DNA of 64,000 nt from Dehalococcoidia bacterium (GTDB lineage Bacteria; Chloroflexota; Dehalococcoidia; Lucifugimonadales; UBA3495), in contig JAGWBI010000001.1 in the NCBI GenBank assembly GCA_021295965.1, positions 11,420 to 75,419 on the forward strand, read 5' to 3'. The notes beneath the pieces are model-generated. The model had not been told where the DNA came from and ran no database searches. It saw only the letters and a program-made list of their open reading frames with translations. The position numbers were made by a program, and so were the translations under genes. Each line of letters begins with the position of its first letter. Position 1 is the stretch's first letter. Shown one piece after another: positions 6,988 to 45,781 of the stretch.

Positions 6988-8598
6988 ATGAGATATGATG
7001 TGGCAATTGTGGGTGCCGGTTCCGCCGGTTCAGTGCTGGCGGCGCGGCTGTCGGAAGATCCGGGTCGCTCGGTAGTGCTGCTGGAAGCCGGACCGGACTA
7101 TCCGGATTTCGATCGACTGCCTGACGAGCTGAAATACGGGTTTGCCGCCGCTCCGACCCCGCCTGCCGCTCGGACCGCCGGCGGCCACCCGGTCTCTTTG
7201 ACCTCCAACCCCCATAACTGGCAGTTCACTGCAACAGCGACTGATCTGGCGCGGCCTATGTTGGTGCCCCGAGGCAAAGTTACCGGCGGCTCCAGCGCCA
7301 TCAATTCGTCCGCTTTTTACCGCGGCGTTCCGGAGGATTTTGACGCCTGGGCATCCTTGGGCAATGACCAGTGGAGCTACGAAAGCGTCCTCCCTTACTT
7401 CCGCAAACTGGAAACGGACATTGACCAGGACGGCGACTATCACGGTTCCGACGGCCCCATATTCGTGCACCATTCCAACCCGGATGCTTGGGGTGCCACC
7501 CAAAAAGCCTTCTTCAGCGCCTGCCGGGCCAGCGGCTTTGAACAGGCCCAAGACCACAACCATCCAGACTCCAACGGGGTCGGCCCAGGCATAACCAACA
7601 ACCACAACGGAGTTCGCTTCAGCACCGCTCTGGGCTACCTGAGCCAGGCTCGCCATCGACTCAACCTGACAATTAGACCCAATTGCAACGTGCGACAGAT
7701 TGTCTTTCATGGCAAACGCGCGACTGGCTTGCTGGTGGAGAGCGGGGGTGAAAATTTCACGGTGGAAGCCGACCAGATTATCCTCAGCGCCGGCGCGGTG
7801 GGTTCGCCCCACCTGTTGCTGCTATCCGGCGTGGGCCCCGCCACGCAATTGGAGCGGTTGGGCATTCGGGTGGTCCAGGACACCCCCGGCGTGGGACAGA
7901 ACCTGAAAGACCACCCCAAGGTGTACGTCACCTGGGAAGCCTCAGACGATTTGGGTTCCTCCGCCAATCGGGGAGCCGGCGGCGCGACCCTGCGCCTCAC
8001 CGCTCCCGGTTCCCATCTGAGGAACGATCTGAGCATCGGCTTTTCCGCCCCGGTCGTGCCACGGGTCAAGGGACCCCAGGCGCAAACGCCACGGGCAGAA
8101 GAAAGAAACGCAATCAGTCGGCACGTTGAAATGATGATCGCCCTGCTTTTGCCCGAAAGCCGGGGCGCACTGACGCTGACTTCCGCCGACTACCAAGTAC
8201 AGCCGGCTTTGCACTACAATTACCTGTCCGAACCCTTTGACCGAGCGCGGCTGCGAGCGGGCATTCTCCTAGCCCTGAACTTGGCAGAGCGTCCAGAACT
8301 GGCGCCATTGCTGGGAAAACGGATTGAACCCGAAGAAAACGACCTGGTGAACGACCAGGTTTTGGATCAATGGCTGCTGCGGGAAGCAACGACCTACTCC
8401 CACATCTCATGCACTTGCAGAATGGGATCATCCAACGACCCTTTGGCGGTGGTCGATCAATACGGAAGGGTGCATGGCATGGAAGGGTTGCGCATCGTTG
8501 ACACGTCAATCATGCCTGACCTGGTGCGCGCCCCAATCAATCCAGCGGTGATTATGATGGCAGAACGAGTGTCAGCCTTCATCAACTCCGACGAATAA
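6988..8598 (+). CDS. GMC family FAD-dependent oxidoreductase (choline dehydrogenase-like)
   Basis: N-terminal YDVAIVGAGSAGSVLAARLSED...VLLLEAGP, GKVTGGSSAINS, C-terminal GMC motifs. Confidence 0.85.
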   Translation: MRYDVAIVGAGSAGSVLAARLSEDPGRSVVLLEAGPDYPDFDRLPDELKYGFAAAPTPPAARTAGGHPVSLTSNPHNWQFTATATDLARPMLVPRGKVTGGSSAINSSAFYRGVPEDFDAWASLGNDQWSYESVLPYFRKLETDIDQDGDYHGSDGPIFVHHSNPDAWGATQKAFFSACRASGFEQAQDHNHPDSNGVGPGITNNHNGVRFSTALGYLSQARHRLNLTIRPNCNVRQIVFHGKRATGLLVESGGENFTVEADQIILSAGAVGSPHLLLLSGVGPATQLERLGIRVVQDTPGVGQNLKDHPKVYVTWEASDDLGSSANRGAGGATLRLTAPGSHLRNDLSIGFSAPVVPRVKGPQAQTPRAEERNAISRHVEMMIALLLPESRGALTLTSADYQVQPALHYNYLSEPFDRARLRAGILLALNLAERPELAPLLGKRIEPEENDLVNDQVLDQWLLREATTYSHISCTCRMGSSNDPLAVVDQYGRVHGMEGLRIVDTSIMPDLVRAPINPAVIMMAERVSAFINSDE

Positions 8599-11477: not shown

Positions 11478-14400
11478 TTACGTTGCGATGGTCGGAATGT
11501 CCAAGTCACGTACCAGGTTGGCAAATTGGGCCACGTCCTCATCTATAACTTGTTGTAGGGCGACCAATTGCCGGTCGATGTCGGCGGAGATGTAGTCGAA
11601 AACCTCAAACGCCTGTCGGGTCGGCGCAAAGTCGGCGTTGGCGACCACGGCGGTTAGTTCCGCCAGCTTGCGGTTCAGCCGCACCGGCAGATCCAACCGG
11701 TCGCGGGCGCCCCGGTACGCCGACTGGATCAGCCGGTCCTCAATCTCCTTTAATTTCCCTTTCACGTCCTCCGCTGCATCCGCTACGGTCTGCTCGGAGG
11801 GATGTCCCTCGGCTCGGTTCATCCATTGGTCCACCTGCTGGCGGACCCGGCGCAGTTGGTTGATGCCGTCGTGGGTCTCCGACACCCGGTCGCGAATTTG
11901 GATCAGGAACTGGAACTGAGCATCGAGATCATCCTGGCTGGCCGCGACGCGGGGGTCTTTGACGATACGGAATTCCCGGGTCTGGAATTCGTCACCCACT
12001 TGAAGCGTCACCTGGTAAGTTCCCGGTGACGCCAGAGGGCCAACGAGGGCGTCCTCGGTCGTCTTGTCTTCGGGCACCTTGCGGGCCGGCTGGTGGCGCA
12101 TATTCCATACGAAGCGGTTCATGCCCGTCTCGGCCGGCGCCCGGGGTTCCGTGGCATCTTCTTCGGCCTCCGGGGGATTGCTGGAGAAGCTCTGTATGGT
12201 CTGACCACTCTGGTCCAGGATGCTCAGGGTTACCTCTTCGGGAGCATCCTTGAGATAGTAGTGGACCAGCACCCCGTCGGGTGGGTTCTCCCCAGCATCC
12301 CAGAACTTTCGCACCGTCTCGCCCCATTGGCCTTGCGACTCGCTGTACGTTACGTCCGCGCCCAGCCCGGCCCGGTAACTCTTGCCCTCGGTGGGCTTCC
12401 TATTCCGGAAGGGCGACCGGACCCGGTAGGTGTCCCGGGGTTGGAGCAAGGTGAAAGGCTGATCCGCCATCGTCGGCGTGAGTTGGCGCAGTTGGGTCAG
12501 GTCATCCAAAATCCAGAACGACCGTCCGTGGGTGGCGGCAATGAGGTTGCCGTCCTTGATTGCCAGGTCATAAACCGGAACGACCGGGAGATTGGCCCGC
12601 AGCGGCTGCCACGACTCCCCCTGGTTGAAAGACACGTAAACTCCGGTCTCGGTGCCGGCGTAGAGCTGGCCCGGGCGCGCGGGGTCCTCCCGTACCACTC
12701 GGGTGTAATCACCGTCAGGCAGGCCGGCGGTGATTGACGTCCAGGTCTGGCCGAAATCGGTGGTCTTATAGAGCATCGGGCGGGTGTCGTCCAGCTTGTA
12801 GCGAGTGGCCGCGATGTAGGCGGTGGCCGGGTCGTGGGGAGAGACCTCGATCATGCAGATGAGTGTCCAATCCGGTAGGTCGTCCGGCGTAACGGCGTCC
12901 CATGTTGCGCCGCCGTCGCGGGACAGGTGTACCAGCCCGTCGTCGGAGCCGGCCCAGAAGACCCCCGCCTCGTGGGGAGATTCCACAAAGGCGAAGATAG
13001 TCGCGTAAACCTCCGCTCCGGAGGTGTCCTTGGTGATGGGCCCGCCCGAAGGTTCCAGGGTGGTCGGGTCGTGCCGGGTCAGGTCGGGGCTGATCGCTTC
13101 CCAGGTAGTGCCCAGGTCGGCGCTGCGGAACACCACGTTGCCGGCGACGAAAAGGGTTCGCGGGTCGTGGGGCGAGAACGTAATGGGGTAGGTCCACTGG
13201 AAGCGGTACTTCATATCCTTGGCGCCCCAGCCGGTGTACAGTTCCGGCCATACCGTGATGATCCGCACCTGCCCGGTGGAATGATCATAGTGCAGGAGAT
13301 TGCCGCCGCCGCCCGCCGAGCTGCCAATGGCCCCGGATATAACGGTGTTGGGATCCTCCGGGTGGACCGCGATATGGCCGCTTTCCGAGTTTCCGACGAC
13401 GTAACAATCGCCCCAGGGGATGGCTCCCTTGTGGGTGCGCGAAGGCACGCTGATGGCGGTGTTATCCTGCTGCGTTCCGTAAACTCGGTGAGGAAACTGG
13501 TTGTCGGTGGTCAGGTGGTAGAACTGGGCCGTGAGCTGGTTGTAGATGCTGGACCAGGTCTCCCCGCCGTTGAAGGAGACACACGCGCCGCCGTCATTGC
13601 CCTCAATCATCCGCAGCGGATTGCTGGGGTCGATCCAAAGGTCGTGGTCGTCTCCGTGGGGCGTGGTTACACGGTTGAAGTTGCGTCCGCCGTCAACGGA
13701 CTTCCAGCACTGGTAGTTGAGTATCCAGACCGTGTCCGCGTCCTGTGGGTCGGCGAAGACGTGCTGGTAGTACCAGGGACGCCCCTGCAAGTCCCGGTTG
13801 TCGCTGACCAACTCCCAGGCATCTCCGCCGTTGTCGGAACGGTACAGGCCGCAGTCCTCGGCCTCGATGGTGGCCCACACTCGCCCCGGCTTGGCGGGAG
13901 ATACGGCGACGCCGATGCGCCCCTTGAGGCCGCCGGGCAGGCCGGGGTTGCCGGTGATATCGGTCCAGGTGTCGCCGCCGTCCACCGACTTGAAGATGCC
14001 GCTCTCCGGCCCGCCGCTGATGAGGCTCCAAGGGGTACGCCTGGTCTCCCAGATGGCGGCGTAGAGGATGCGGGGGTTGTTGGGGTCGAGGGACAGGTCC
14101 GCCGCCCCGGCATTCTCGCTACGGAACAGGATCTTCTCCCAGGTGTTCCCTCCGTCCCTGGAGCGGAAAACTCCCCGCTCGTCGTTGGGGCCGTAGGCGT
14201 GGCCCAGGGCCGCGACGTACACCAGGTCGGGGTCGGCGGGATGCACTCGCACCCGGGAGATGTGCCGGGTGTCGGACAGGCCCATGTTGGCCCAGGTCTG
14301 ACCGCCGTCGGTGGACCGGTACACCCCGTCACCGTAGGTCACGTCCCCGCGGATGCAGGACTCGCCCATGCCGGCGTAAATCACGTTGGGGTCGGAAGGG

Positions 14401-18607: not shown

Positions 18608-18724
18608 CGCAGGCTACCAACCTTGTCAGCAGCGACATCTATAAGAACCGGCGATCCACCATCCCGCCCTACGCTTGGTCGGGAACATCCCAACTTCACC
18701 GGCCGATGCTAAAATGCTCGCCAA

Positions 18725-19960
18725 ATGACCGTTTCGAGCGAACAATCAAACGCCGAACCCCTCGGCCCACTCAGCGATTTTAGAGTGTTGGACCTGGCCG
18801 GCCCTATGGGCGTGTACTGCGGCAAGCTGTTGGCCGACATGGGGGCTGACGTTATCAAAATCGAGCCGCCGGGCGGCGACCCCATGCGCGATATTGGCCC
18901 CTTCATAGGTGGCCAGCCCGGCCCCGGCCGCAGCCTGTATTGGCTCCACTTCAATACCAACAAGCGCAGCGTGACTCTCGATATCAGCTCATCTGAAGGC
19001 GCGGCAACGCTGCGTAAGCTCGCCCTCGCTTGCGACGTGCTGCTGGAGACCGGCCCGCCCGGGTACATGGATTCCCTGGGATTGGGATACGACAACCTGG
19101 CGGCGGACTGTCCTGGTCTGGTGTACGCGTCCATCACGCCTTTCGGTCAGACTGGCCCCTATCGTGATTTCAGGGCATCTGACCTGGTGGGCTTTGCCAT
19201 GGGCGGGTACATGTACGTCACCGGCTGGCCCCACACTCCCCCCACCCGGTTGTGGGGGTCCCAGGCCTACCACACCGCCTCCAACCGCGCCTATATCGCC
19301 ATCCTGTTGGCCCTGTACCATCGCGACATGACCGGCGAAGGACAGTACATCGACGTTTCCATGCAGGAGGCGGTGGCCGCCACCACCGAGCACGTTAACA
19401 CCACCTACAACTACACCGGCGAGTCGGCAGTGCGCTGCGGCTTCCGCCACGGCGGCCAGTTCGTCGCCACCTGGCCGTGCAAGGATGGCTACGCCAGCAT
19501 CACTACCAATACCCGCAAGGCATGGGATGACCTGCGGGCGTGGATGGACCGGGACGGCATGGCCGGCGACCTGATGGACGAAAAATACAACGACCACTTC
19601 GTCCTGCGGGGCGAGCATTCGGCTCATATAGAGGTCCTTATCCAGCGATGGGCCATGCTCCACACCCGGCAGGAAATAACCGAGTTCGGCCAGTCCAACC
19701 ACCATCCCTGGGGTCCCGCCGCCACCCCCGATGAAATACCGGAAAACGAACAACTATGGGGCCGTGGATACCTGACAACTTTGGAGGCTCCCGACGGCGG
19801 CCCGTCCATGGTGTATCCGGGCGACCCGTATCGCCTGAGCGAGTTCCCACTCCCGATACGCCGGACGGCTCCCGCACCCGGGGAACATAACGCCGAGGTG
19901 TTTTCCGAAATCCTGGGCCTCTCATCGGAAGATCTGGAACGCCTGTCTGGCCGAGGTTGA
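18725..19960 (+). CDS. CaiB/BaiF family (family III) CoA-transferase
   Basis: LSDFRVLDLAGPMGVYCGKLLADMGADVIKIEPPGGDPMR is the canonical family-III N-terminus. Confidence 0.85.
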   Translation: MTVSSEQSNAEPLGPLSDFRVLDLAGPMGVYCGKLLADMGADVIKIEPPGGDPMRDIGPFIGGQPGPGRSLYWLHFNTNKRSVTLDISSSEGAATLRKLALACDVLLETGPPGYMDSLGLGYDNLAADCPGLVYASITPFGQTGPYRDFRASDLVGFAMGGYMYVTGWPHTPPTRLWGSQAYHTASNRAYIAILLALYHRDMTGEGQYIDVSMQEAVAATTEHVNTTYNYTGESAVRCGFRHGGQFVATWPCKDGYASITTNTRKAWDDLRAWMDRDGMAGDLMDEKYNDHFVLRGEHSAHIEVLIQRWAMLHTRQEITEFGQSNHHPWGPAATPDEIPENEQLWGRGYLTTLEAPDGGPSMVYPGDPYRLSEFPLPIRRTAPAPGEHNAEVFSEILGLSSEDLERLSGRG

Positions 19961-29608: not shown

Positions 29609-29675
29609 GATGGTACTCCTCGCGGCGGTTGCCTGGGGTCAGCATATCGTAGCGGCGAGATGGCGGCAACAGTGG

Positions 29676-30179
29676 CTACGGCAAGCGGGTGATTCGGTAG
29701 TCAGGAAAGTATCTGTTCCACGCAGCGATGTTGAACACTCCACAACCGTCGACGAGTGACCGCGTCCAAAGAACCGAACTCGGCAGGCGCAGCGGGAGTA
29801 TGCGCTCCAAAGCCGTGGCTCGGCGCGCCATGTCGCCAGGGCCCAAATCGTTCTGCGCAATTAACACCAAATAATAGATGGACTTGTCCGCTCGTCCGGC
29901 TGCCCACTCGTATAGCAAAGTATCACGGTACTTGTACTTGAAATCTTCGTCACGGCGACCTTCTGCCAGGCTCTCTACGAATTCGACCCGCTCTTGAGGC
30001 GGGATGTAAGGAGCATCTGGGTCCTTGAACTCAACGAACAAATAGCGGTCAGGCAGTTCTATGATGAAATCCACCGCCTTCATGCAATGACTCAAGCCGT
30101 GGTCGTCATCATCAAACTTACGGATATTGACTGCACCGTTGACGGTGATTTGCAAATTGCCTTCCGTAAAAACCGTCAT
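29676..30179 (-). CDS. Hypothetical 167-aa protein, possible PD-(D/E)xK nuclease fold; partner of the upstream ATPase
   Basis: ATGA start/stop overlap with the ATPase gene. AVDFIIELPDRYLFVEFKD gives a D ... E-x-K spacing of 13 residues compatible with a restriction-endonuclease-like core. The fold call is inference only. Confidence 0.5.
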   Translation of the reverse strand: MTVFTEGNLQITVNGAVNIRKFDDDDHGLSHCMKAVDFIIELPDRYLFVEFKDPDAPYIPPQERVEFVESLAEGRRDEDFKYKYRDTLLYEWAAGRADKSIYYLVLIAQNDLGPGDMARRATALERILPLRLPSSVLWTRSLVDGCGVFNIAAWNRYFPDYRITRLP

Positions 30180-31183
30180 TCTATGAGACCTCTCAAACTG
30201 CGCCTAAGTTGCCGGTCATAGAGGTCGTCAAACGCTTCGTCAATCGCGTTGGGGTGAATGTCCAGATAGCGGTTTACTGTATGGCACGCGATTTCGCCGG
30301 TTTCATCCCGGAAAAGTGAATGGAACGCCACCTGATCTTTCTCCGTCATCTGCAGGTCAAGCTCCTTGAGGATGACGTAATCATGCGTCGCGAAGAAAAC
30401 CTGCACCCCGGCCCGCTGCAACTCCAGCAGGACGCCAATCACTACGCGGAACATCTTGGGGTTCAGGTTTGCCTCCGGCTCATCCCAGAACAGCACGGAG
30501 CCATTCTGCAAGGTCCCGTTCCGGATGAGCAGCCAAAGCAAACCCAGCTTGCGCCATCCTTCCGCAAGCAGTGTGAACTCCAGGTCTCCCTGCTCATTGA
30601 TCAGAAAGAATTCTTCACCGCTAACCGTAACCTTTCCGCCAATAACGCTTTCCAAGCGATCCAGCATTTGTCGGTGGGCGTCATCAATGGGTTCACGCAA
30701 AGCGGGAAGGTTTGCCTTGAGCAGGATGTCTCGATATACCTCTTCGAAATGAACCTCGCGAGCTTCGTATAGGGACAGAAAACCCGGAGCATTCGCCAAC
30801 ATCTCTTTTACTGGAATATACGCCGATTCCACCGCCTGGTCTGGCCATTCTCCCGGGACGATCGTCCAGTTTGCACCCCTACTTCCGAAGGAGGTCGCAA
30901 ATCTCGACGGGCCAATGTGTACCTCTAGCTTCCCACCAGATTCTTCATATCTTTGGCGGACTAATCGTCCGCTCGCGCGACCGGACGGGAGAAATACTCG
31001 GACCAATTTTTCTGAGAGGCCGTTGCCGGTTTTGATCACATCGCACACGGCATAGCAAACCTTCATCAGGTGCGTCTTCCCCGTCCCGTTCCCGCCAACC
31101 AGCGCGTTGATTCCGGGCGAAAACTCCACCTCCAAGTCCTTGAAGGCGGTGAAACGCTCCAGTTTTATCTTGGTGACAGGCAT
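30176..31183 (-). CDS. ABC-type / AAA_15-AAA_21-like ATPase (SMC/RecF-related, no transmembrane partner)
   Basis: KIKLERFTAFKDLEVEFSPGINALVGGNGTGKTH (Walker A), LAEGWRKLGLLWLL (signature-like), SVLFWDEPEANLNP (Walker B), FFATHD (H-loop). Confidence 0.8.
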   Translation of the reverse strand: MPVTKIKLERFTAFKDLEVEFSPGINALVGGNGTGKTHLMKVCYAVCDVIKTGNGLSEKLVRVFLPSGRASGRLVRQRYEESGGKLEVHIGPSRFATSFGSRGANWTIVPGEWPDQAVESAYIPVKEMLANAPGFLSLYEAREVHFEEVYRDILLKANLPALREPIDDAHRQMLDRLESVIGGKVTVSGEEFFLINEQGDLEFTLLAEGWRKLGLLWLLIRNGTLQNGSVLFWDEPEANLNPKMFRVVIGVLLELQRAGVQVFFATHDYVILKELDLQMTEKDQVAFHSLFRDETGEIACHTVNRYLDIHPNAIDEAFDDLYDRQLRRSLRGLIE

Positions 31184-31310
31184 ATCTCTTCACTCTTGGA
31201 TGTTGCGCTTGGTGACCGGCCGTCAACGGCTTGGCTCCCGTCCAGGGCCACGGGTTTGGCCCATTGCCGCCGTGTATAATCGTACCACCATCTGAAAATA
31301 GGCACAGATT

Positions 31311-34205: not shown

Positions 34206-34799
34206 ATGGTCAACAACCAGGTTACACAACGGGTGGGCGAGGTCATGGTGTCGCACACCCAGCGGATTGAAGCACAGTGTTACCGACTGCACGCGGCGCC
34301 GCCTTTGGGAGCGCTGTTGCGCGTTGGCGAGTCGCCCGTATATGCCGTGGTCCGCGAAATCTGGCATGAGCCCCTGGACCCGACCCGCCCGCTGGCGCCC
34401 CGGGGGGAAACCCTGGAGTCCGAAGACGAAATATACGCCGCCAACCCGCAGTTGAGCGCCATGCTGACCACCAGGTTCGCGGCGGTAGTGGTGGGATATG
34501 GCGATGGAACGGACCTGCGACCGGGCCTGCCGGATCAGCCTCCGGGCCTGCACTCGTTTGTATCCCTTTGCGACCTTGGCGAGTTGGCACGTTTCGCCTC
34601 CGACCTGCGATGGCTTCGGCTGATGCTGGCCGACCGCACGCCGGTCGGCGACACGGCCCTGTCCTTATTCCTGCGCCGGGCCGCGGACTCCGTTGACGAC
34701 CGGCGAGGTTTTTTGAAACGGGCCGGGCAGGCACTGGTTGCGGAATTGTTTAGCGAACCCCTGCGGATGCAGGCGTTGCTGAGGGAAGTGTTAGCTTGA
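34206..34799 (+). CDS. Hypothetical protein with HAS-barrel-like N-terminus, coupled to the HerA-like ATPase
   Basis: GEVMVSHTQRIEAQCYRLHAAPPLGALLRVGESPVYAVVREI resembles the HerA N-terminal barrel. The stop overlaps the TTG start of the next gene (TTGA). Confidence 0.45.
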   Translation: MVNNQVTQRVGEVMVSHTQRIEAQCYRLHAAPPLGALLRVGESPVYAVVREIWHEPLDPTRPLAPRGETLESEDEIYAANPQLSAMLTTRFAAVVVGYGDGTDLRPGLPDQPPGLHSFVSLCDLGELARFASDLRWLRLMLADRTPVGDTALSLFLRRAADSVDDRRGFLKRAGQALVAELFSEPLRMQALLREVLA

Positions 34800-36487
34800 C
34801 CCTGAACGGCGAAGGAGCCAACGGTTATTTCTCCCCCGGCCAGCGCCGGCTCGGGTTGGTCGTTGGCGGCTCGTTGTCCCGCGGGTTGGATGTACGCCTG
34901 GATACAGCGAACGGAGCATCCCTGGAGGATATCGCCGTCGGTTCGTTCGTGACGGTCCAGGGTCGGCGGAAGCGGTACTTTGCCGTGGTGACCGATCTGG
35001 AGCTGCGGGCGGTGGATGATAGCGTGCGTCATTTTCCGCCGGACACGCGAGACGGCTACCTCGCCGAGGTAATGGCCGGTACCATGGCTTACGGCCAGCT
35101 GTCGGTGATGCCCAGCATGACGGCCGGCCTGGATGACTCCGGCACAAACGTTGCCGAGCAGGCCAAGTCTATACCGGAACACTTCGCCCCCGTCTTCGCA
35201 GCGTCCCAGGCCGACATTGACGCCGTGTTCAACGCGGAGAGGAGCAGCGCATTCGCGCTGGGTTCGCCGCAGGGGATGGACGCAGCCTCCATTCGGCTGG
35301 ATCTGGGGACATTGGCCAGCCGGTCGGTGGGCGTGTTCGGCGCATCGGGTTCGGGAAAGACGTTCCTGGCGCGGATGTTGCTGGCCGGGCTGGTGAAACA
35401 GGGCCAGACGGTGTCGCTGGTGTTCGACATGGAAAGCGAATATGGCTGGCAGGGACAGGACAACGACCGCCGCCGACAGGTAAAAGGATTGAAACAACTC
35501 TTCCCCAGCCGTGTGGTCACCTTCACGCTGGACGAGGCGAGCAGCCGGCGAAGGGGAGTTACGCCTGACGGCGTGGTGCGCATCGGTTACGACGAAGTGG
35601 AGCCGTCTGACATCGAGATCCTGCGTGAATCAATGCAGTTATCGGAGGTGGCGACGGCGGCGGCTTGGAACCTGAAGCAACGGTTCGGAGACGGTTGGTT
35701 GAAAGAATTTCTGGCACACTCCGGCGCCGATTTGGGAGATTTGGCACGGGAGATCGGCGTCAACCAGGCGGCGTTGGGCGCGCTGCATAATCGTTTAAAC
35801 CGTTGGAGCCGTTTCGGTTTCCTGGTTGATCGAGGTGAAGGCGCTGCCAGCGCCGGCGGCATCATCGAGCAGTTGGAGCGCGGCAACCACGTGGTGCTGG
35901 AGTTCGGCCAATACGGACGCGACACATCGGCGTACGTGCTGGTGAGCAACCTGCTGACCCGGCGCATACATGATACCTGGGTGCGCCGCAAGGAACTGGC
36001 CGACGGCGGCCAGGGAGACGAACCGCGTCCGCTGGTGATATTCGTCGAAGAGGCCCACAAGTTCCTGACGACGGACATCGCATCCCAGACCATTTTCGGC
36101 TCCATCGCCCGCGAACTGCGCAAGTACAACGTCACGCTGATGATCGTTGACCAACGACCCAGCGGCATCGACTCCGAGGTGATGAGCCAGCTGGGAACCC
36201 GCCTGTCCTGCGCCTTGAACGACGACCGGGATATGAACGCCGTGCTGATGGGCGCCCGTGACGCCGGCCAGCTTCGCAATGTGCTGGCCCGACTGGACAG
36301 CAAGCAGCAGGCGCTGGTGTTCGGCCACGCCGTGCCGATGCCCGTGGTGGTCCGGCCCCGGGACTACGACGAAACCTTTTATGCAGATATGGCCGTGACC
36401 GCCGAGGTAGCCGGAGTAGCCGCGTTGGGCGAAACCGATACGGAGCGGATGCAGCGGGAAATCGACGAGCTGTTTCCACCGGAGTAA
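34796..36487 (+). CDS. HerA/FtsK-like ATPase (DUF87 family)
   Basis: N-terminal HAS barrel (VGSFVTVQGRRKRYFAVVTDLEL), Walker A GASGSGKTF, Walker B LVIFVEEAHKFL, and MIVDQRPSGIDSEVMSQLGTRL. Confidence 0.75.
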   Translation: MTLNGEGANGYFSPGQRRLGLVVGGSLSRGLDVRLDTANGASLEDIAVGSFVTVQGRRKRYFAVVTDLELRAVDDSVRHFPPDTRDGYLAEVMAGTMAYGQLSVMPSMTAGLDDSGTNVAEQAKSIPEHFAPVFAASQADIDAVFNAERSSAFALGSPQGMDAASIRLDLGTLASRSVGVFGASGSGKTFLARMLLAGLVKQGQTVSLVFDMESEYGWQGQDNDRRRQVKGLKQLFPSRVVTFTLDEASSRRRGVTPDGVVRIGYDEVEPSDIEILRESMQLSEVATAAAWNLKQRFGDGWLKEFLAHSGADLGDLAREIGVNQAALGALHNRLNRWSRFGFLVDRGEGAASAGGIIEQLERGNHVVLEFGQYGRDTSAYVLVSNLLTRRIHDTWVRRKELADGGQGDEPRPLVIFVEEAHKFLTTDIASQTIFGSIARELRKYNVTLMIVDQRPSGIDSEVMSQLGTRLSCALNDDRDMNAVLMGARDAGQLRNVLARLDSKQQALVFGHAVPMPVVVRPRDYDETFYADMAVTAEVAGVAALGETDTERMQREIDELFPPE

Positions 36488-36528: not shown

Positions 36529-37380
36529 ATGCTCAGAATGAGGGTTGTCGAAACGTGCGCGGAGATGATGGCGGCGTGCCGGCAGGCGGCCCGTCCGCTG
36601 GGTTTGGTCCCGACCATGGGGGCGCTGCATGAGGGGCATCTTTCGCTGACGCGGCAGGCGCGGGCGGACAACGTGACCATGGCCGCCTCTATATTCGTCA
36701 ATCCCACCCAGTTCGGCCCCAACGAGGATTTCGCCCGCTACCCCCGCAGCCTGGAACGCGATCTGGAACTGCTGGAGACGGAAGGAACCGACCTGGTATT
36801 CGTTCCACCGCCCGACGAGGTTTATCCCGAAGGCTTCGACACCTGGATAGAGCCGGGCGCAGTGGCGGAAGGCATGGAAGGCGCGGCCCGTCCCGGGCAT
36901 TTTCGCGGGGTGGCCACGGTGGTCGCCAAACTGTTCACCATCACCCGCCCGGAACTGGCCTACTTCGGCCAGAAAGACGGCCAACAGGTGGCAGTAATCC
37001 GCAAGATGAACCATGACCTCAATCTGGGCGTGGAGATCGTCACCATGCCCACCATCCGAGAACCCGACGGCCTGGCCCTCAGCAGCCGCAACGCCTACCT
37101 GACCCCGGAGCAGCGCGAAGCCGCGCCGGCTGTGTACCGCGCACTATGCGCGGCAGAGGATGTTTGGCGCCGGGGCGAAAGGGACGCGGCGCGGGTCCAG
37201 CGGGCTGCCTACAACATCTTGGAACGCGAGACCTTGGTGGATGCCGTGGACTACGTCAGCGTAGTAGATGCCGACAGCATGCGACCGGTCGAAACCGTGC
37301 AGAACGACCTGGAGCTGATGATTGCTACAGCGGTGCGCCTGGGGTCGGTGCGGTTGATTGACAACGTGGTGCTAGGTTGA
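36529..37380 (+). CDS. panC: Pantoate--beta-alanine ligase
   Basis: LVPTMGALHEGHLSL and FVNPTQFGPNEDF motifs. Confidence 0.9.
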   Translation: MLRMRVVETCAEMMAACRQAARPLGLVPTMGALHEGHLSLTRQARADNVTMAASIFVNPTQFGPNEDFARYPRSLERDLELLETEGTDLVFVPPPDEVYPEGFDTWIEPGAVAEGMEGAARPGHFRGVATVVAKLFTITRPELAYFGQKDGQQVAVIRKMNHDLNLGVEIVTMPTIREPDGLALSSRNAYLTPEQREAAPAVYRALCAAEDVWRRGERDAARVQRAAYNILERETLVDAVDYVSVVDADSMRPVETVQNDLELMIATAVRLGSVRLIDNVVLG

Positions 37381-37419
37381 GGCGTTATTGCTGGTTGCCG
37401 AACCCTCACGCACTCTAAA

Positions 37420-37857
37420 CTATTCGGATTCCTCGGTATCTAGCACCTGAACTACGGGGTCCCCTATGGTGACGTAACTGTTTTCTTCATCCATTTGGTC
37501 GCCCAGTTCTTCAAAAGACTCTCTAACCCGGAGCGTTTCGCGACGCGTTTCCCATTTCGGAGGCTGGAACAGAGCAGAAAATGTCGTCCCTGTTCCCCCA
37601 ACGTTGACGCGCATGGTTCGGTAGGTTGATGCGACAGATACTTTATCGCTAACGCGCGTGATCTTAACACGCGTTTTAGGCAACTCAACAGGTCCTAATT
37701 CTTCGCCCGTGTCCGGATCGGTCACCCCAACCTCAAACAATATATCGAACAGCATTCCAGTTTCTACACCTTGGATTTTGCCGATGTTCAAGGCAACTTC
37801 ACGTGACGTTAGTATTTTTGCGATTTTTCCACGTATGGGCTCCGTGCGTATTGCCAT
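37420..37857 (-). CDS. Hypothetical protein (146 aa from MAIRTEPIRGK)
   Basis: ATG at 37857 is preceded by GGGGAG. Sits in AT-shifted DNA. I recognise no family. Confidence 0.45.
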   Translation of the reverse strand: MAIRTEPIRGKIAKILTSREVALNIGKIQGVETGMLFDILFEVGVTDPDTGEELGPVELPKTRVKITRVSDKVSVASTYRTMRVNVGGTGTTFSALFQPPKWETRRETLRVRESFEELGDQMDEENSYVTIGDPVVQVLDTEESE

Positions 37858-38269
37858 TTTGCTCGACTCCCCAACGCGCTGGCCATGATCCCAGTATCTC
37901 ATCAACATCGTCTGGCACAATATCCCGCCAGTCTTCCACGGCAGACCCACCAGTGGGAATCTGTTCATTAACTATTGCTTGGATGACGTTCAATCGGTAG
38001 TCAAAACTCCCTTCCGTCTTGTAATCCTCTATCCGCTCAGATACGCGAAAGAGACTATCCCGCAAGGACAGAATCCTACGTATCGAAGCCCGAGCATGTG
38101 GACGTATCACATCGTAATCTGCAGCCTTGGCGGCGTTGCGACCAAATCGGTATGAGCCAAGTAACCCGTTCGCCAACGTCACTATCTGAAAGAGGATATT
38201 TTCAAGCCGGGTTAGATCGCGTATTGGGGATACTGAAATCATCCCGCACAACGCAATCAAGAATGCCAA
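37799..38269 (-). CDS. Hypothetical protein (TTG start; hydrophobic N-terminus, possibly 5'-truncated)
   Basis: The ORF opens right after a TAG, and the in-frame upstream peptide DIPLIGLG continues the hydrophobic segment. It overlaps the next ORF by 59 nt. No recognisable family. Confidence 0.35.
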   Translation of the reverse strand: MAFLIALCGMISVSPIRDLTRLENILFQIVTLANGLLGSYRFGRNAAKAADYDVIRPHARASIRRILSLRDSLFRVSERIEDYKTEGSFDYRLNVIQAIVNEQIPTGGSAVEDWRDIVPDDVDEILGSWPARWGVEQNGNTHGAHTWKNRKNTNVT

Positions 38270-38378
38270 CCCCAGACCGATGAGCGGGATGTCCTACCAC
38301 CATTTAGTGTGGTACGCCGAATCTGCTGGACGCACTCCAAGCGTACCTCCGCGAGTTCGTGCTCAGGTGTGCCCCGCC

Positions 38379-39377
38379 CTACGACTGCGTCAACTCCCGC
38401 ACCGTCTCGGTCAGGGCCGGTATGATGGTTTCCCAGTTGCCCACCACGCCGTAGCGGGCTTCTTTGAAGATGTTGGCGTCGGCGTCGCGGTTGATGGCTA
38501 CGATGGCCTTGGATCCGCTGCAACCGGCCATGTGCTGGCTGGCGCCGGATATGGCTACCGTGATGTACAGGTCGGGAGTGATGGTCTTGCCGGTCAGGCC
38601 CACCTGGTAATTGGCAGGAACCCAGCCGGAGTCCACGGCGGCCCGGGAGGCGCCGACCGCGCCGCCCAGCAGATGGGCCAGCTCTTCCAGTTGCGAGAAT
38701 GGCTCGGGTCCACCCAGGCCGCGCCCGCCGGACACCACGATGCGGGCGTCCTCCAGCTTGATGCCCTCGGCCTCTTCCCTGACGACGTCCACCACGCGGG
38801 TTCGCGCCGCCGATGCGTCGATCTCCACGGGGAACGAAACCGTTTCGCCGCTGCGGGATGCGTCGGCTTCCAATGGCTCGTAGGTCTTGGGACGGATGGC
38901 GGCGATCTGCGGCGTCTGGGTGCAGCTGACCACGGCGATGGCGCTGCCGCCGTACACGGGACGGTTGGCCAGGAGCCGGCCGCTGCTGGCGTCAGCGGAC
39001 ACTTCTAGGCAGTCCTGGGCCAGACCCACGCCGAGGCGGAAAGCCAGCCGGGGGGCCAGTTCGCGGCCCTCGTTGTTGCGGGCGATGAGGATGATGCTGG
39101 GGTTGGCGTCGGCGGCCAGGGCCTGCATGGCGGCCAGAGAAAGGTCAGGATGATAATCAGCCAGCGAGGGATTGGTCACCGCATAGGCTTTGTCCGCGCC
39201 GTGGGCGATGGCCTGTTGGGCCGCGTCGCCCACGTCAGAACCGATGATGCCGATGGCCAGTTCCTGTCCGAGGGTGTCGGCCAACGTGCGGCCGGCGGCA
39301 AGCAATTCCAAGGCCGTGGAGGCCAACTGCCCATCGGGGGCGTCGCCGAAAACGAGGATTCCGGTAGCGTCTGCCAT
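38379..39377 (-). CDS. etfA: Electron transfer flavoprotein alpha subunit
   Basis: C-terminal FAD-binding region [11 protein letters not shown]...[28 protein letters not shown]. Confidence 0.85.
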
Positions 39378-41407: not shown

Positions 41408-41411
41408 GGTG

Positions 41412-42023: not shown

Positions 42024-42025
42024 GG

Positions 42026-42484
42026 TTATGCCTTGTCGTTCGGGGACGGAGCGGCGGGATAAACTTCACGATGATTAACCTGCCGGGCCAGTATAGCCAC
42101 AACGTCAGTATCATCCTCAGTGTACCCGAAGATGCCAGTGTGTGAAGGGTCGTGTGATTCACCCAAAGTTGCGATTTGAATGTCCATGTCCAAATCACTC
42201 TTGCACACCGCAATGGCAGTACCGACATTAAGGACAGCAAACGCCGTATTACCCCTGACGCGAAAGCCTTTGTCGGTCAGAGCCTGCCGAACTCCGGCGA
42301 TTTGCGCTTGCCGGTCCGCATCGTGAAAGTGCTCCAGCCAGTTGGTGGAGAGGTATTTTTCACCGGGCCGGAGCCGGAAGGCGTTTTCTTGTGGCACCCC
42401 GTTGACCATATCACGTGCCCGGCAGTATCGGGCCACATGGTGGTGCCCCAATAACCGTCCTCGTTGAGCAGAGGCTAGCGACAT
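42026..42484 (-). CDS. Hypothetical protein (152 aa), fourth gene of the AIPR operon
   Basis: The ORF overlaps the upstream gene by 10 nt. His-rich conserved-looking patches (GHHHVARYCR, YLSTNWLEHFHD, ESHDPSHTGIFGY). No family recognised. Confidence 0.5.
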   Translation of the reverse strand: MSLASAQRGRLLGHHHVARYCRARDMVNGVPQENAFRLRPGEKYLSTNWLEHFHDADRQAQIAGVRQALTDKGFRVRGNTAFAVLNVGTAIAVCKSDLDMDIQIATLGESHDPSHTGIFGYTEDDTDVVAILARQVNHREVYPAAPSPNDKA

Positions 42485-42915
42485 TTAAGCAGTCCTTCTG
42501 CGGCCAATTTTCGCGTAATCGTTTTGCTGGTCGTAGTTTTTCTACCACCACGAATGTTGACAAATTTGCCGTCGCGGTCGGTAGCAGTGAACGTAACTTT
42601 GTCACTATCTACAAACCATAAAGCGGCGTTCCTTTTGTCTTCAAACCGCAACCCGACGCAAAGCCAGCCCTCTTGCGAGCAAGTCAGATCAATCTTGCCT
42701 TCGGTTTCCACCGCGCCGAAAAAAGCCACGAACCCCCGGGCGCTTTCGAGGGTCAGCGGAACATCGCCGTTATCCAGATCTTCATCGGAGGCAAAGTAGG
42801 CCAAGCGGTCGGCCAGGTCGGGATGGCCCCAGCCGCGCAGCACGTCGTCCACCTCGGCGATGGAGCGAAGGCGGGCGATGGCGTCCGAGGGGAGGGGGCG
42901 GGGGGTGGTGGTCAT
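42475..42915 (-). CDS. Hypothetical protein (146 aa), third gene of the AIPR operon
   Basis: ATGA overlap with the AIPR stop. No family recognised. Confidence 0.5.
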   Translation of the reverse strand: MTTTPRPLPSDAIARLRSIAEVDDVLRGWGHPDLADRLAYFASDEDLDNGDVPLTLESARGFVAFFGAVETEGKIDLTCSQEGWLCVGLRFEDKRNAALWFVDSDKVTFTATDRDGKFVNIRGGRKTTTSKTITRKLAAEGLLKCR

Positions 42916-44744
42916 GGTGGTGGCAGATTGGCAAACGGGTTGCCGAAGGTTCGCGCTAATCGTGATGCCCCCTGCAAATTGGATTCTATCAATCGGTAGC
43001 TTGCAGCAGTACGGAAAAATTCTCTGTCATTGCCCGTGAATGTTCCACGGTCCTCGGCTTCCTGTCGAGAGTTTCTGATCGCGGCAACTGCAACTGTGTA
43101 CATAGGCACCAACCAGCCGTCAACCTGTTCGGCGATTGTTACCGCCCGATGGGCTGGAAAGAGGTTGCCTTGGAGTTGGTAATGCTCACGCAGTAGGTTA
43201 CCCATGAGCCAAACGATATGAAAGCGAGCGTACTCCAGCCAATCCTCTTCGGTTTTGTCGTTTTCCACTTGCTTCCACACATTGCTCTGCACTACTGCTG
43301 GGAGCAACAACTGCGCGGCGGCGATGTTCTCTGTATAGATGGCATCGTAGCTGAATTCACTCTCGCGAGCTATGGACGATACGGGTTCTTTGTTAAGAAA
43401 TGCCCGGATTTTGTCTTTTGCTTCCCCTGGAAATCCTGCGAATGATACAACTGCCTGAGCAACTTCTTTGCTGGTCAGCTTTCTGTATCCTCCTTCCGGT
43501 CGCCGGTACTGTTCTTTGGCAGTCGCTCCACCGAGCATTTTGTCCCATTCGCCTCGCTTGATTTGATAAAACCAAGGTGGCGTCATCCCCATAGACTCGC
43601 GTTGGAGTCTGATTTGTACAGCCTCGTTGGAAGTGAAGTCTTCTGCGCGCAATGCAGTTTGACTGTTGGTAGTTGCCGCAATGGTGTTTGCAAAATGCGA
43701 AGGGCACGCTGTGAGTTTGACCGTGACCAAGACACCGGGATCGTTTTGGACAGCGGCTCTCGCGTTCCAGAGAGTAACCGTAGTTTGGCAACCATTGATA
43801 ATCTGAAAGTCGCGTACAATTAGCTGATCCCCTTCCAACCGATATGCTTCGCAAAACGCAGTGATACCGTTGTTAAGCAGGTGGAATCGCCTGCGGTCTA
43901 TTTCATCAAGTAGCGTGCGCTTGATTGATGTGTTCACTTTATTACCCAGAGGCCCCCGGGGATTCAGCCGGAAGATTCTAAAGCCGTGCCTTGCAAACAC
44001 GTCGATAATCTGCTTGACCGGTACCGTCATTGACAGAGTACGGTATTCAGTATCGGGATGGGTTTGGTGGTAAGACTCCGGCTCCAGCTGAAAAGTGAAA
44101 TCACACGGCGTGAGAACGTCATCGCTTACCTGTTGATTTTCGTGCTGCTCGTATAGATCATCCAAGTCCAAGCATTCCAAGGTCACTGTAACGTCAGTGG
44201 GGTTGCCGCCAACGTCAAAGGTCAGTACCCGGGAGCGATTTGTTTCGGCGTTTCGTCGCCCGGTGGGACTTAACCTGCCGCTGGTAGCCCAAATCATATT
44301 TATTGAGCAGGACCTCTCCCGTGACGCCAGCCGTTTGACGAGCTCATCATGAAGGGCCTTGGTCTCAAAATTGTTGCAAGCGGCAACCTCGTTGGCGTTG
44401 AGCAAGCGGATGGGGGCGTTTAAGAACGCTGCAAACTCCCCAGCCCCCATTGTAGTCCCCGGTTCGCGGCGCTTGCTTTGGAGCAGATGAATGACTGAAT
44501 CGTCATCGGATTCCGGAATGAAGTACCCGTCAATCTCGAAATCATCAGTGCCTTCAATGGCGGTAGCCTCAACTATGTCGTTCCCCTGGACATCGTGACC
44601 CACGCCAAAAACTGTAGCAAACCCCCAATGGCGAAAGCCCCGGTCGAGGTTGCCACCATAGTATTCGTCGGCCGCTTCTTCAATGAACGGCAGTATGTGG
44701 TCGTAGCGGTCTTGGGCCACTTGCCGTCGGCTGGTCATGGTCAC
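42912..44744 (-). CDS. AIPR family abortive-infection protein (N-terminal PD-(D/E)xK-like module plus AIPR domain)
   Basis: DDFEIDGYFIPESDDDSVIHLLQSKRR (D...Q-x-K nuclease-like motif) and the AIPR hallmark LLNNGITAFCE...FQIINGCQTTVTL. Confidence 0.8.
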   Translation of the reverse strand: MTMTSRRQVAQDRYDHILPFIEEAADEYYGGNLDRGFRHWGFATVFGVGHDVQGNDIVEATAIEGTDDFEIDGYFIPESDDDSVIHLLQSKRREPGTTMGAGEFAAFLNAPIRLLNANEVAACNNFETKALHDELVKRLASRERSCSINMIWATSGRLSPTGRRNAETNRSRVLTFDVGGNPTDVTVTLECLDLDDLYEQHENQQVSDDVLTPCDFTFQLEPESYHQTHPDTEYRTLSMTVPVKQIIDVFARHGFRIFRLNPRGPLGNKVNTSIKRTLLDEIDRRRFHLLNNGITAFCEAYRLEGDQLIVRDFQIINGCQTTVTLWNARAAVQNDPGVLVTVKLTACPSHFANTIAATTNSQTALRAEDFTSNEAVQIRLQRESMGMTPPWFYQIKRGEWDKMLGGATAKEQYRRPEGGYRKLTSKEVAQAVVSFAGFPGEAKDKIRAFLNKEPVSSIARESEFSYDAIYTENIAAAQLLLPAVVQSNVWKQVENDKTEEDWLEYARFHIVWLMGNLLREHYQLQGNLFPAHRAVTIAEQVDGWLVPMYTVAVAAIRNSRQEAEDRGTFTGNDREFFRTAASYRLIESNLQGASRLARTFGNPFANLPPP

Positions 44745-45079
44745 ATTCCCAAATGCAACATGATCGCATCGCCCCGATAGGGCAAATTGTCAACCCATTG
44801 CAGCAGCGTTGCCCGGTCAGAAGCGTCCAGGTTCTTCTTCACAGCCCAACCATCGGCGCGCCTGAGTAACACATCCCGCTCGAACTCGTAGAGGGCATTG
44901 CCTTCCCAGCCATCGCCCCAAGTTGGTTCATAGTCGAACGTGTCAAACTCGTTTCCCACGTCCGAGTCGGTCATCAAGTCTTGCAGAAACCCGTACATCG
45001 GTTGCCCGGGCTGCTCCAAGTATTCGATGGTCACCACCCCAATGTCCAGTCCCATCGCCATTGCCTCGCAAATTGGCAT
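44741..45079 (-). CDS. Hypothetical protein (112-126 aa), first gene of the AIPR operon
   Basis: The stop overlaps the AIPR GTG start (GTGA). Start is either ATG at 45079 or TTG at 45121. Acidic, Trp/Gly-rich (EPTWGDGWEGNALYEF). No family recognised. Confidence 0.45.
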   Translation of the reverse strand: MPICEAMAMGLDIGVVTIEYLEQPGQPMYGFLQDLMTDSDVGNEFDTFDYEPTWGDGWEGNALYEFERDVLLRRADGWAVKKNLDASDRATLLQWVDNLPYRGDAIMLHLGM

Positions 45080-45148
45080 GGCTATAGTTTTGCGGACCCG
45101 GAAGCAGGCGTCAACAACCAACTGTCATCAATTTCGCATCGGCGCCCA

Positions 45149-45739
45149 CTACGCCGGCACCAATCCCAAGCTTCCCCGCACGGCTTCTACCATCTCGCCG
45201 AACCGCGCGTCGTCAATCACCGGCCTCGCGTTGCCCAAGCGAACGGTGGGGATAATATCCACCCAGGACTTGCAGCCGCCGTACTCGGGGATGTAGGACA
45301 CGGTGGTGGGCGATTCCATCTCGTAAACCCGCAGCAGCATGATGGTCAGCGGCACCATGGGCTTCCAGTGCAGGCGAGACTGGGCGTAGGTGTCGGTCCA
45401 GATGTGGTGGGGCGCCAGGTCTTCCACCTTGCCCTGCTGATCGATCTCGATGAGCTCGTGGACGCGGGCCCAGTGGGTGAATGTCACGGCGTCCTTGTCG
45501 TCAGGGTCGTCAGCCAGCAGTTGCCGCAGCGTGGGCTGGTGGCTGTCCTTGAGCAGCTCTTCCTTCTGATGCAGGTAGGTGGGATAGAGCAGGAACTCGG
45601 GATGCACCACGCGGAAGTCCTTGCTCTCCTCGTGGATGCCGCCCTTGCGGAGCATCATGATCTGGTCGCCATCAGCCAGCGCCTTCACGGTTATCGCCCA
45701 CTCTTTCAGGGCCAGTTGGCAGGTTGCGGGAGTGGTCAT
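45149..45739 (-). CDS. DUF1802 family protein
   Basis: Start MTTPATCQLALKEWAITVKALADGDQIMMLRKGGIHE at 45739. The listed longer ORF reads through MITE copy 3. Confidence 0.55.
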   Translation of the reverse strand: MTTPATCQLALKEWAITVKALADGDQIMMLRKGGIHEESKDFRVVHPEFLLYPTYLHQKEELLKDSHQPTLRQLLADDPDDKDAVTFTHWARVHELIEIDQQGKVEDLAPHHIWTDTYAQSRLHWKPMVPLTIMLLRVYEMESPTTVSYIPEYGGCKSWVDIIPTVRLGNARPVIDDARFGEMVEAVRGSLGLVPA

Positions 45740-45781
45740 GGCGTCAACCTCCGTTGTAATTGCCTCGGAAACTTTTGAACT

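Follow-up and report, generated by a model that had tools for sequence, protein, structure and literature searches.

The 64-kb stretch of DNA from a Dehalococcoidia bacterium analysed here, referred to in its entirety as the window, carries a two-gene cassette at positions 29676-31183. Both genes lie on the minus strand. Gene A (30176..31183) encodes a 335-aa ATPase of the ATP-binding cassette (ABC) type that has no coiled coil, fused nuclease or membrane partner, and gene B (29676..30179) encodes a 167-aa stand-alone protein, a putative nuclease of the PD-(D/E)xK-like kind. The two genes share a 4-nt ATGA stop/start overlap (30176..30179, minus strand), read in the sequence and indicative of translational coupling; of 78 related loci, 63 have a 4-nt ATGA or GTGA overlap, and the rest are mostly artefacts of the way in which start codons were inferred. 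A preliminary description of this DNA had reported two overlapping open reading frames (ORFs) here and had proposed them as a candidate defence module; their coordinates and the motifs quoted for them were confirmed in the sequence.

PADLOC assigns both proteins, over their full length, to the anti-phage system HEC-02. Protein A matched the HEC-02A profile PDLC04213 with E = 3.8e-122 and 406 bits (residues 1-330 against positions 1-334 of the 337 in the profile) and a second HEC-02A model, PDLC04214, at 7e-51. Protein B matched the HEC-02B profile PDLC04229 with E = 7.2e-51 (residues 1-166 against positions 1-168 of 171), and eight more HEC-02B sub-models matched it at 1e-13 to 1e-35. Profiles for other ABC-ATPase defence proteins (AriA, GajA, PtuA, AbiLi, Old and HEC-01A) gave partial matches on A with far lower scores. 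These features of HEC-02 membership are present in the window: full-length profile matches for both proteins, same-strand adjacency in the order A then B, intact ATPase motifs and a (D/E/Q)xK motif in B. Embedding in Hma or in another multi-gene defence system, which served as a discovery criterion and is not needed for membership, was not seen for the window copy. We also observed that one PADLOC-DB model labelled HEC-02B, PDLC04146, matches the ATPase A over residues 4-286 at E = 5.3e-59, an apparent labelling inconsistency.

From these data we conclude with good confidence that the cassette is a complete, intact HEC-02 anti-phage system in which A is a compact ABC-type ATPase and B a small putative nuclease of the PD-(D/E)xK-like kind. 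The pair is a new copy of a known, catalogued system in a new phylum context. The preliminary description had been able to match it to no named system; that claim falls, and on the very result that its author had named as decisive, the assignment of both genes by profile tools.

HEC-02, or Hma-embedded candidate 02, was described as an ABC ATPase together with a "NERD-like" PD-(D/E)xK protein, embedded in Hma systems (Payne et al., bioRxiv 10.1101/2024.01.29.577857). In E. coli MG1655 deltaRM, expression of one representative lowered plaque formation by at least two phages by orders of magnitude, and protection depended on both genes (bioRxiv 10.1101/2024.01.29.577857). A literature search found no later mechanistic paper on HEC-02. 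The proposal that the cassette is a defence module is supported by the HEC-02 profiles, by this published phenotype of a homologue and by relatives embedded in bacteriophage exclusion (BREX) systems, which are described below.

Protein A had been proposed to be an SMC/RecF-like ABC ATPase, and this is borne out by its Pfam matches (AAA_21, 2e-17; AAA_15, 3.6e-12; also SMC_N) and by the conservation of its motifs, measured across 79 homologues. All of these motifs are encoded on the minus strand. The Walker A motif or P-loop, G30-G-N-G-T-G-K36-T-H38 (31070..31096), is at least 90% conserved. In the ABC signature-like motif L206-AEGWRK-L213 (30545..30568), residues G209, R211, K212 and L213 are invariant, and in the Walker B and D-loop-like stretch V230-LFWDEPEANLNP242 (30458..30496) the same is true of F232, W233, D234, E235, P236, N239, L240, N241 and P242. 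A265, T266 and H267 of the H-loop, A265-T-H267-D268 (30380..30391), are likewise invariant, as is Q261. The closest solved chains to A were FtsE, Rad50 and PtuA, at an E of only ~1e-4, and NCBIfam returned nothing specific for either protein.

In contrast to these blocks, residues 49-120 of A (30824..31039, minus strand), just after the Walker A helix, form a hypervariable segment. Mean pairwise identity among syntenic alleles was 0.28-0.32 at residues 49-61 and 72-120, compared with at least 0.94 in the catalytic blocks. By its position alone, this segment would correspond to "Insert 1" of ABC ATPases, and it is a likely candidate for the sensor or specificity module of the system.

Protein B has 690 homologues in a database clustered at 90% identity, all of them ~165-175 aa long and none with a Pfam domain; an exhaustive profile search returned ~840 clusters at 50% identity, in which the protein stands alone and measures ~165-185 aa in nearly every case. 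Neither Pfam nor NCBIfam matched B itself. Its putative catalytic core, D37 ... E50-x-K52 (30024..30071, minus strand), lies within the motifs V36-DFIIE41 and L47-FVEFKD53. In a sample of the B family at 30-56% identity, D37 and E50 are the only invariant residues, and E6, F22, D23, V36, K52, D53, K83, D86, P129, W154 and R165 are at least 90% conserved. Among syntenic alleles, B is variable at residues 12-17, 59-76 and 110-120 and has a conserved core at residues 30-37.

Prediction of B from its single sequence with AlphaFold2 gave a predicted local distance difference test score (pLDDT) of 45.8 and was unusable, so an alignment-based AlphaFold2 model was used instead (pLDDT 89.2; predicted template modelling score 0.86), with dips in confidence near residues 21-30 and 131-140. 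In this model D37 sits just ahead of a strand at residues 38-41 and E50 and K52 lie inside a strand at residues 45-52, followed by helices at 61-93 and a strand at 100-107. As modelled, the three residues occupy the canonical beta-hairpin position of the PD-(D/E)xK motif, which in this superfamily is the beta2-beta3 hairpin of an alpha-beta-beta-beta-alpha-beta core. The best Foldseek match in the PDB was 2p14, the small subunit of R.BspD6I (E = 1.2e-2, probability 0.95, template modelling (TM) score 0.33); further PDB matches were Hjc, N.BspD6I, MUS81, RecU, HincII and Bse634I. The top lists from the PDB and BFVD consist almost entirely of PD-(D/E)xK nucleases, including type II restriction endonucleases, endonuclease I, VRR-NUC and ERCC4. 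We therefore accept B as PD-(D/E)xK-like from its motif and its predicted topology, and regard the fold match as suggestive.

A separate observation concerns H27, H31 and C32 (30086..30101) and C146 (29742..29744) of B. Within the close subfamily no variation is seen at H27, C32 or C146, conservation of H31 is 90% or more, and these residues may form a subfamily-specific metal or structural site. A metal site at these positions was dropped as a feature of the family at large because they are less than 90% conserved in the wider B family.

To place the cassette among its relatives, we drew on a genome scan that gave 323 loci encoding relatives of B, 80 of which were retrieved for analysis of linkage and context. 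All 80, from several phyla, have a homologue of A on the strand of B and directly upstream of it. The co-occurrence of the two families that had been put forward as a check was thereby obtained and, together with the 690 homologues of B, it rules out chance ORFs. The closest relatives of the cassette are found in Dehalococcoidia metagenome-assembled genomes (MAGs). The close HEC-02B subfamily also occurs in MAGs labelled Caldilineaceae, Candidatus Binatia, Latescibacterota and Desulfurellaceae, and in others labelled Bipolaricaulota, Acidobacteria and Planctomycetes. This patchy spread across phyla is consistent with horizontal transfer.

Several of the relatives are embedded in, or adjacent to, other defence systems. 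On the Methylomonas plasmid pLM6 (L162), brxC and pglX of a type 1 BREX system enclose a distant A-B pair whose two proteins are each 32.5% identical to those of the window. The Sphingobium plasmid pTomMM15c, whose annotation is only generic, has an A-B pair in the same type 1 BREX gene layout (B 33% identical by tblastn). In two MAGs, one of Thermodesulfobacteriota and one of Deltaproteobacteria (L021, 4142..11348; L041, 4970..10858), pairs of the window's own subfamily (A 57-60% and B 54-55% identical) are located between PglXI and BrxHI, both recognized with E ~0, and hence in type 3 BREX. In a Binatia MAG (L009, 5113..11635) a 575-aa OLD/AriA-like ATPase borders the pair on one side and the R subunit of a type I restriction system on the other. 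The type 1 BREX proteins of pLM6, used as queries, found nothing in the 80 loci, a query set that also missed the type 3 BREX of L021 and L041. The neighbours of the pair in L013 had no PADLOC match, and those in L012 look metabolic or transport-related, by eye only. As to the defence-island setting that had been put forward as a check, relatives do occur in BREX types 1 and 3 and beside OLD-like and type I genes, but the window copy has no defence neighbours. As a side observation, pLM6 has a second gene embedded in the same BREX operon (12990..14147), between pglX and pglZ, which is annotated as a "PDDEXK nuclease domain-containing protein".

Only four matches to B were found on plasmids, and none in 50,697 phage records. 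A phage-borne origin of the cassette, which we considered, is unsupported by this search.

In the window, the cassette is bordered by a gene for a luciferase-like monooxygenase (LLM; 28514-29608, minus strand, the same strand as B) and by an S49 peptidase gene, sppA (31311-32138). Pfam confirms both flanks as previously named. The previously noted shift towards A and T is also real: GC content is 53.8% in the cassette as compared to 61.5% in the window and 63.9% in the adjacent LLM gene, GC at third codon positions (GC3) is 0.63-0.64 as compared to 0.77-0.81 in the neighbouring genes, and only 2.3% of equal-sized segments of the 64 kb have a GC content as low.

The preliminary description had the cassette inserted between unrelated genes, and one possibility for this observation is a recent horizontal insertion. 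We rejected this explanation. About 25 species-level Dehalococcoidia genomes or contigs share the order Lit - MazG - SppA - [A-B] - LLM2 - LLM1, and no adjacent tRNA, integrase or bracketing repeat was found at the cassette locus. Furthermore, GC content of the cassette is below that of its flanks in 74 of 74 loci, with a mean gap of 7.9 points. Because of this and of the shared site, the AT shift is a family-wide trait and not a mark of recent acquisition. With regard to tRNAs, ARAGORN called a tRNA-His with an atypical "atg" anticodon elsewhere in the window (18861..18937, minus strand); Rfam at its gathering threshold gave no tRNA in 18700-19100, and the call is probably a false positive.

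Empty sites were found in four loci (L103, L104, L113 and L115), where SppA adjoins LLM2 with only ~150 bp between them and LLM2 is ~70% identical. Other distant lineages have metabolic genes or genes of unfamiliar function, not defence genes, at the SppA|LLM junction. These contents led us to reject the idea that the site is a general hotspot for defence genes.

The contexts described above bear on a different explanation of the cassette, that it is a selfish toxin-antitoxin (TA) or addiction unit in which one protein is a toxin and the other its antidote, and which is kept by post-segregational killing and not by any anti-phage benefit. Pfam describes AAA_21 as a "putative AbiEii toxin, type IV TA" domain, the unit is compact and translationally coupled, and copies occur on plasmids. 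On the other hand, the long stay of the cassette at one chromosomal site without a mobile element leaves little for addiction to act on, the plasmid matches are few and phage matches absent, and same-strand embedding inside BREX operons argues for an immune role, as does the large reduction in plaquing by a homologue, for which both genes are needed. We consider an addiction unit highly unlikely; TA-like abortive behaviour and defence are, for that matter, not mutually exclusive.

Compared to the stable position of the cassette, its alleles are divergent. In the closest genomes (L004 and L007), the flanking proteins are 86-98% identical to those of the window, whereas A is 68% identical to that of L004 and B is 72-75% identical to those of L004 and L007. 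For A of L007 the comparison is limited to a C-terminal high-scoring segment pair of 147 residues (76% identity), as this gene is frameshifted. The proportion of synonymous differences (pS) in the cassette is 0.69-0.79, near or at saturation, as compared to 0.24-0.50 in adjacent genes, where a strong GC3 bias compresses pS. The whole-gene ratio of nonsynonymous to synonymous substitution (dN/dS) is ~0.1 for both A and B, and therefore both genes are functional and constrained by purifying selection. Synonymous divergence (dS) in the cassette is saturated.

Mantel comparisons across 22 syntenic genomes gave a similar picture. The flanking genes co-diverge with one another (r 0.68-0.88, p = 0.0002), whereas divergence of neither A (r 0.14, p 0.11) nor B (r 0.01, p 0.40) follows that of the flanks, and A and B do not follow each other (r 0.07, p 0.17). 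Some genomes with 97% identical flanks have A proteins that are 66% and B proteins that are 58% identical, and B alleles 96-97% identical were found paired with A alleles only 68-75% identical. Sliding nucleotide identity resolved sharp mosaics in three pairs (L002/L006, L040/L049 and L002/L008): identity is 97-99% over the final ~120 nt of A and nearly all of B, above the 90-94% of the very conserved LLM2 flank. In pairs whose B genes are 97-99% identical, codons ~40-105 of A drop to 38-57% nucleotide identity.

Two loci carry disrupted copies of A. The frameshift in L007 (~7016..7983) lies near residue 184 and represents either a pseudogene or an assembly error. In L045 (1878..8004), HEC-02A is split after ~residue 112 by ~5.1 kb of nested insertion sequences (IS), consisting of three identical copies of a 392-aa DDE transposase and an IS5-like element, and B is intact.

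The uncoupled divergence of A, B and the flanks, the sharp mosaics and the variable segments together indicate recombinational turnover of alleles at a fixed locus. Along with the AT shift and the occasional inactivation of A, the uncoupled divergence and the mosaics are dynamics typical of immune genes and speak for a defence role. It could be speculated that in this Dehalococcoidia clade the cassette is a long-lived polymorphic immune locus, in which old, divergent alleles of A and B are exchanged between species by homologous recombination and reassort independently; we put this forward tentatively, as a possibility that falls somewhat short of being probable. The conserved flanks would serve as anchors for the exchange, as would a conserved block that runs from the 3' end of A into the 5' end of B, and the hypervariable segment of A, the putative sensor, would reassort independently of the variable parts of B.

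These data are also relevant to the idea that the cassette is a housekeeping module for DNA repair or recombination, that is, a RecF/Rad50-like ATPase and a nuclease that act on host DNA and are kept vertically for genome maintenance. Such a module would be consistent with the stable SppA/LLM position in ~25 species genomes without hallmarks of mobile elements, with the weak N-terminal similarity of A to Rad50, RecF and SMC heads and with the low dN/dS. It is difficult to reconcile with mosaic alleles whose divergence is uncoupled from the flanks, with the hypervariable segment in A and the persistent AT shift, with empty sites in distant relatives that keep the flank synteny, or with losses through IS insertion or frameshift in some genomes. 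The embedding of relatives in BREX and the published phage-defence phenotype of a homologue also stand against it. A repair function is therefore extremely unlikely, and an HEC-02 defence system is the reading that we carry forward.

By analogy with PARIS, Septu and Gabija-type systems, we envisage for such a system that A would bind B and hold it inactive in a complex for as long as the cell is uninfected. In PARIS, AriA sequesters AriB until a phage trigger releases AriB, and we borrow this model for A and B. A would sense an infection cue, which could be a phage protein or a phage nucleic-acid structure, mainly via residues 49-120; the hypervariability of this segment and its reassortment independently of B, set against the frozen catalytic blocks, point to it as the putative infection sensor. 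ATP binding or hydrolysis at the site formed by the Walker A, signature, Walker B and H-loop motifs would then switch the complex, and B would cut nucleic acid through D37, E50 and K52, so that the phage no longer replicates, whether by direct restriction or by abortive infection.

Several points weigh against this account. The published HEC-02 phenotype belongs to one homologue in E. coli, not to this allele or host lineage. The window pair is neither inside nor beside another defence system, its neighbours being metabolic or housekeeping genes, and the nearest defence-like gene, an AIPR/AbiU-like one, is ~12 kb away. Complex formation, trigger and substrate are all proposed by analogy, and the HEC-02 study explicitly leaves the sensing mechanism and the role of ATP open and reports no HEC-02 active-site mutants (bioRxiv 10.1101/2024.01.29.577857). 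With regard to B, Foldseek searches of the PDB and BFVD gave no match at E <= 0.001, with TM-scores of 0.2-0.35, and the Pfam NERD profile (PF08378) matched neither the window B at E <= 1 nor any of 49 members of the B family even at E <= 10. Of the PD-(D/E)xK core proposed in the preliminary description, then, the D37/E50/K52 motif and the topology stand, and a significant structural match was not obtained. No NERD structure was among the Foldseek matches of B, and when the B profile was searched against PDB sequences the result was only noise (E 0.6). The published NERD similarity of HEC-02B was structural (bioRxiv 10.1101/2024.01.29.577857). We did not adopt the "NERD" label for B because it was not reproduced at the sequence level.

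One interpretation of these negative results is that the cassette is a defence system in which B, built on a degenerate PD-(D/E)xK-like scaffold, serves as an adaptor or binds a ligand, with an output such as ATP depletion or the recruitment of a host nuclease. In its favour, no characterised nuclease was matched significantly by structure or by profile, and the first conserved acidic residue, E6, lies on a beta-strand and not on the usual alpha-1 helix. However, D37, E50 and K52 show little or no variation in a family at 30-56% identity and are predicted to occupy the canonical hairpin positions, and in each of two independent libraries nearly all the structural neighbours, weak as they are, are PD-(D/E)xK nucleases. 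The PD-(D/E)xK assignment was also reached by structure in the original study (Payne et al., bioRxiv 10.1101/2024.01.29.577857). A non-nucleolytic B thus has only a slim chance of being correct, and we retain the assignment of B as a putative nuclease.

Transcription of the cassette presumably starts in the 127-bp divergent intergenic region between A and sppA (31184..31310), which was designated as the promoter region from the gene layout alone. A scan for the sigma-70 consensus found no match in it, a consensus that says little for Chloroflexota. At the other end, the stop codon of B and the LLM gene are separated by a gap of 67 bp (29609..29675, minus strand). A terminator scan, uninformative for this phylum, found no terminator-like site in this gap, and transcriptional read-through from B into the LLM gene is therefore possible. 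By Pfam, the wider neighbourhood encodes two luciferase-like monooxygenases, the S49 peptidase SppA, MazG, Lit and a HIBADH-type dehydrogenase.

Other features of the window were noted in passing. The AIPR-family gene mentioned above (42912..44744, minus strand) encodes a 610-aa protein with matches to Pfam AIPR (2.6e-38) and PADLOC AbiU (9.5e-30) and a weak one to NCBIfam MzaE. It lies within a low-GC stretch at ~41100-45500, the lowest-GC part of the window (minimum 0.517), and is flanked by two small ORFs without family matches (42026..42484 and 44981..45778). It is probably a second, separate defence gene of the abortive-infection type.

A 563-aa HerA-type ATPase is encoded at 34796..36487 (plus strand; DUF87, 1.6e-19; HerA_C; weak HAS-barrel), and anti-phage HerA profiles match it in its C-terminal part only. 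Its gene overlaps by 4 nt with that of a 197-aa protein (34206..34799, plus strand) that has no Pfam, PADLOC or NCBIfam match and is not NurA, Sir2 or DUF4297. This pair has a normal GC content, 86-90% identity in L004 and L007 and dN/dS of 0.09-0.14. A second, milder low-GC stretch at ~36700..38900 (minimum 0.553 per 1.5-kb segment) has no PADLOC match; it covers the gene for pantoate-beta-alanine ligase (36529..37380) and an ORF of 182 aa (37420..37968) that matches FlgT_C weakly.

In practical terms, the cassette should carry an HEC-02 annotation and not stand as an unnamed candidate. With these data the range of HEC-02 grows to include uncultured Dehalococcoidia (Chloroflexota) and other poorly sampled phyla, in which it appears on the chromosome as a system standing alone. 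The contrast between frozen catalytic blocks and hypervariable residues 49-120 of A offers a testable hint on a mechanism that the literature leaves open. The locus also illustrates that a persistent AT shift is no proof of recent insertion, and that a defence cassette can hold one site across many species while its alleles turn over by recombination. If the tentative polymorphic-locus interpretation is true, residues 49-120 of A would be a natural, swappable specificity determinant, and the locus would offer a tractable example, among uncultured bacteria, of trans-species immune polymorphism. The allele shuffling at a fixed site in Dehalococcoidia is unusual but secondary; the find is otherwise an ordinary one.

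The cassette was also compared with known systems. PARIS, which pairs the ABC ATPase AriA with AriB (DUF4435/TOPRIM), has an ATPase of the same broad class and the same two-gene logic of sensor and nuclease. However, A is much smaller than AriA, whose profile matches only residues 173-272, the C-terminal ~100 residues (E = 1.5e-18), and PADLOC and Pfam gave no AriB, TOPRIM or DUF4435 match for B. Septu (PtuA and the HNH protein PtuB, including the PtuAB effectors of retron Ec78) has a similar ATPase head and also pairs an ATPase with a small nuclease, but the PtuA profile covers only residues 1-44 of A, the N-terminal P-loop stretch (E = 5e-9), A lacks PtuA-specific regions and B has no PtuB or HNH match. 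In Gabija the resemblance is confined to the P-loop, as GajA profiles match residues 1-46 only; the 335-aa A has no TOPRIM domain and there is no adjacent helicase gene. PADLOC and Pfam thus agree with the earlier view that B is neither HNH nor AriB and that a neighbouring helicase is absent. For AbiL, the AbiLi profile matches A at E = 5e-14, far below HEC-02A, and B has no AbiLii match. Shedu (SduA, DUF4263) is also a defence nuclease of the PD-(D/E)xK class, but it consists of one gene and lacks an ABC ATPase partner; SduA_C gave a non-significant match (E 0.096) to one member of the B family.

The sister architectures HEC-01 (ABC ATPase and TOPRIM) and HEC-03 (ABC ATPase and PIN) have been described as combining an ATPase that has variable Inserts 1 and 2 with an interchangeable effector (bioRxiv 10.1101/2024.01.29.577857). 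HEC-01A profiles match A weakly (E = 9e-13), and the effectors are TOPRIM and PIN as opposed to the PD-(D/E)xK-like protein found here. In HEC-02 itself, allele shuffling at a fixed locus is not reported in the accessible text of the original account (Payne et al., bioRxiv 10.1101/2024.01.29.577857), and the window copy differs in standing alone between metabolic genes on a Dehalococcoidia chromosome. It is like HEC-02 in its two-gene order, A then B, in its pairing of an ABC ATPase with a small (D/E/Q)xK protein, and in having relatives that are embedded in defence systems.

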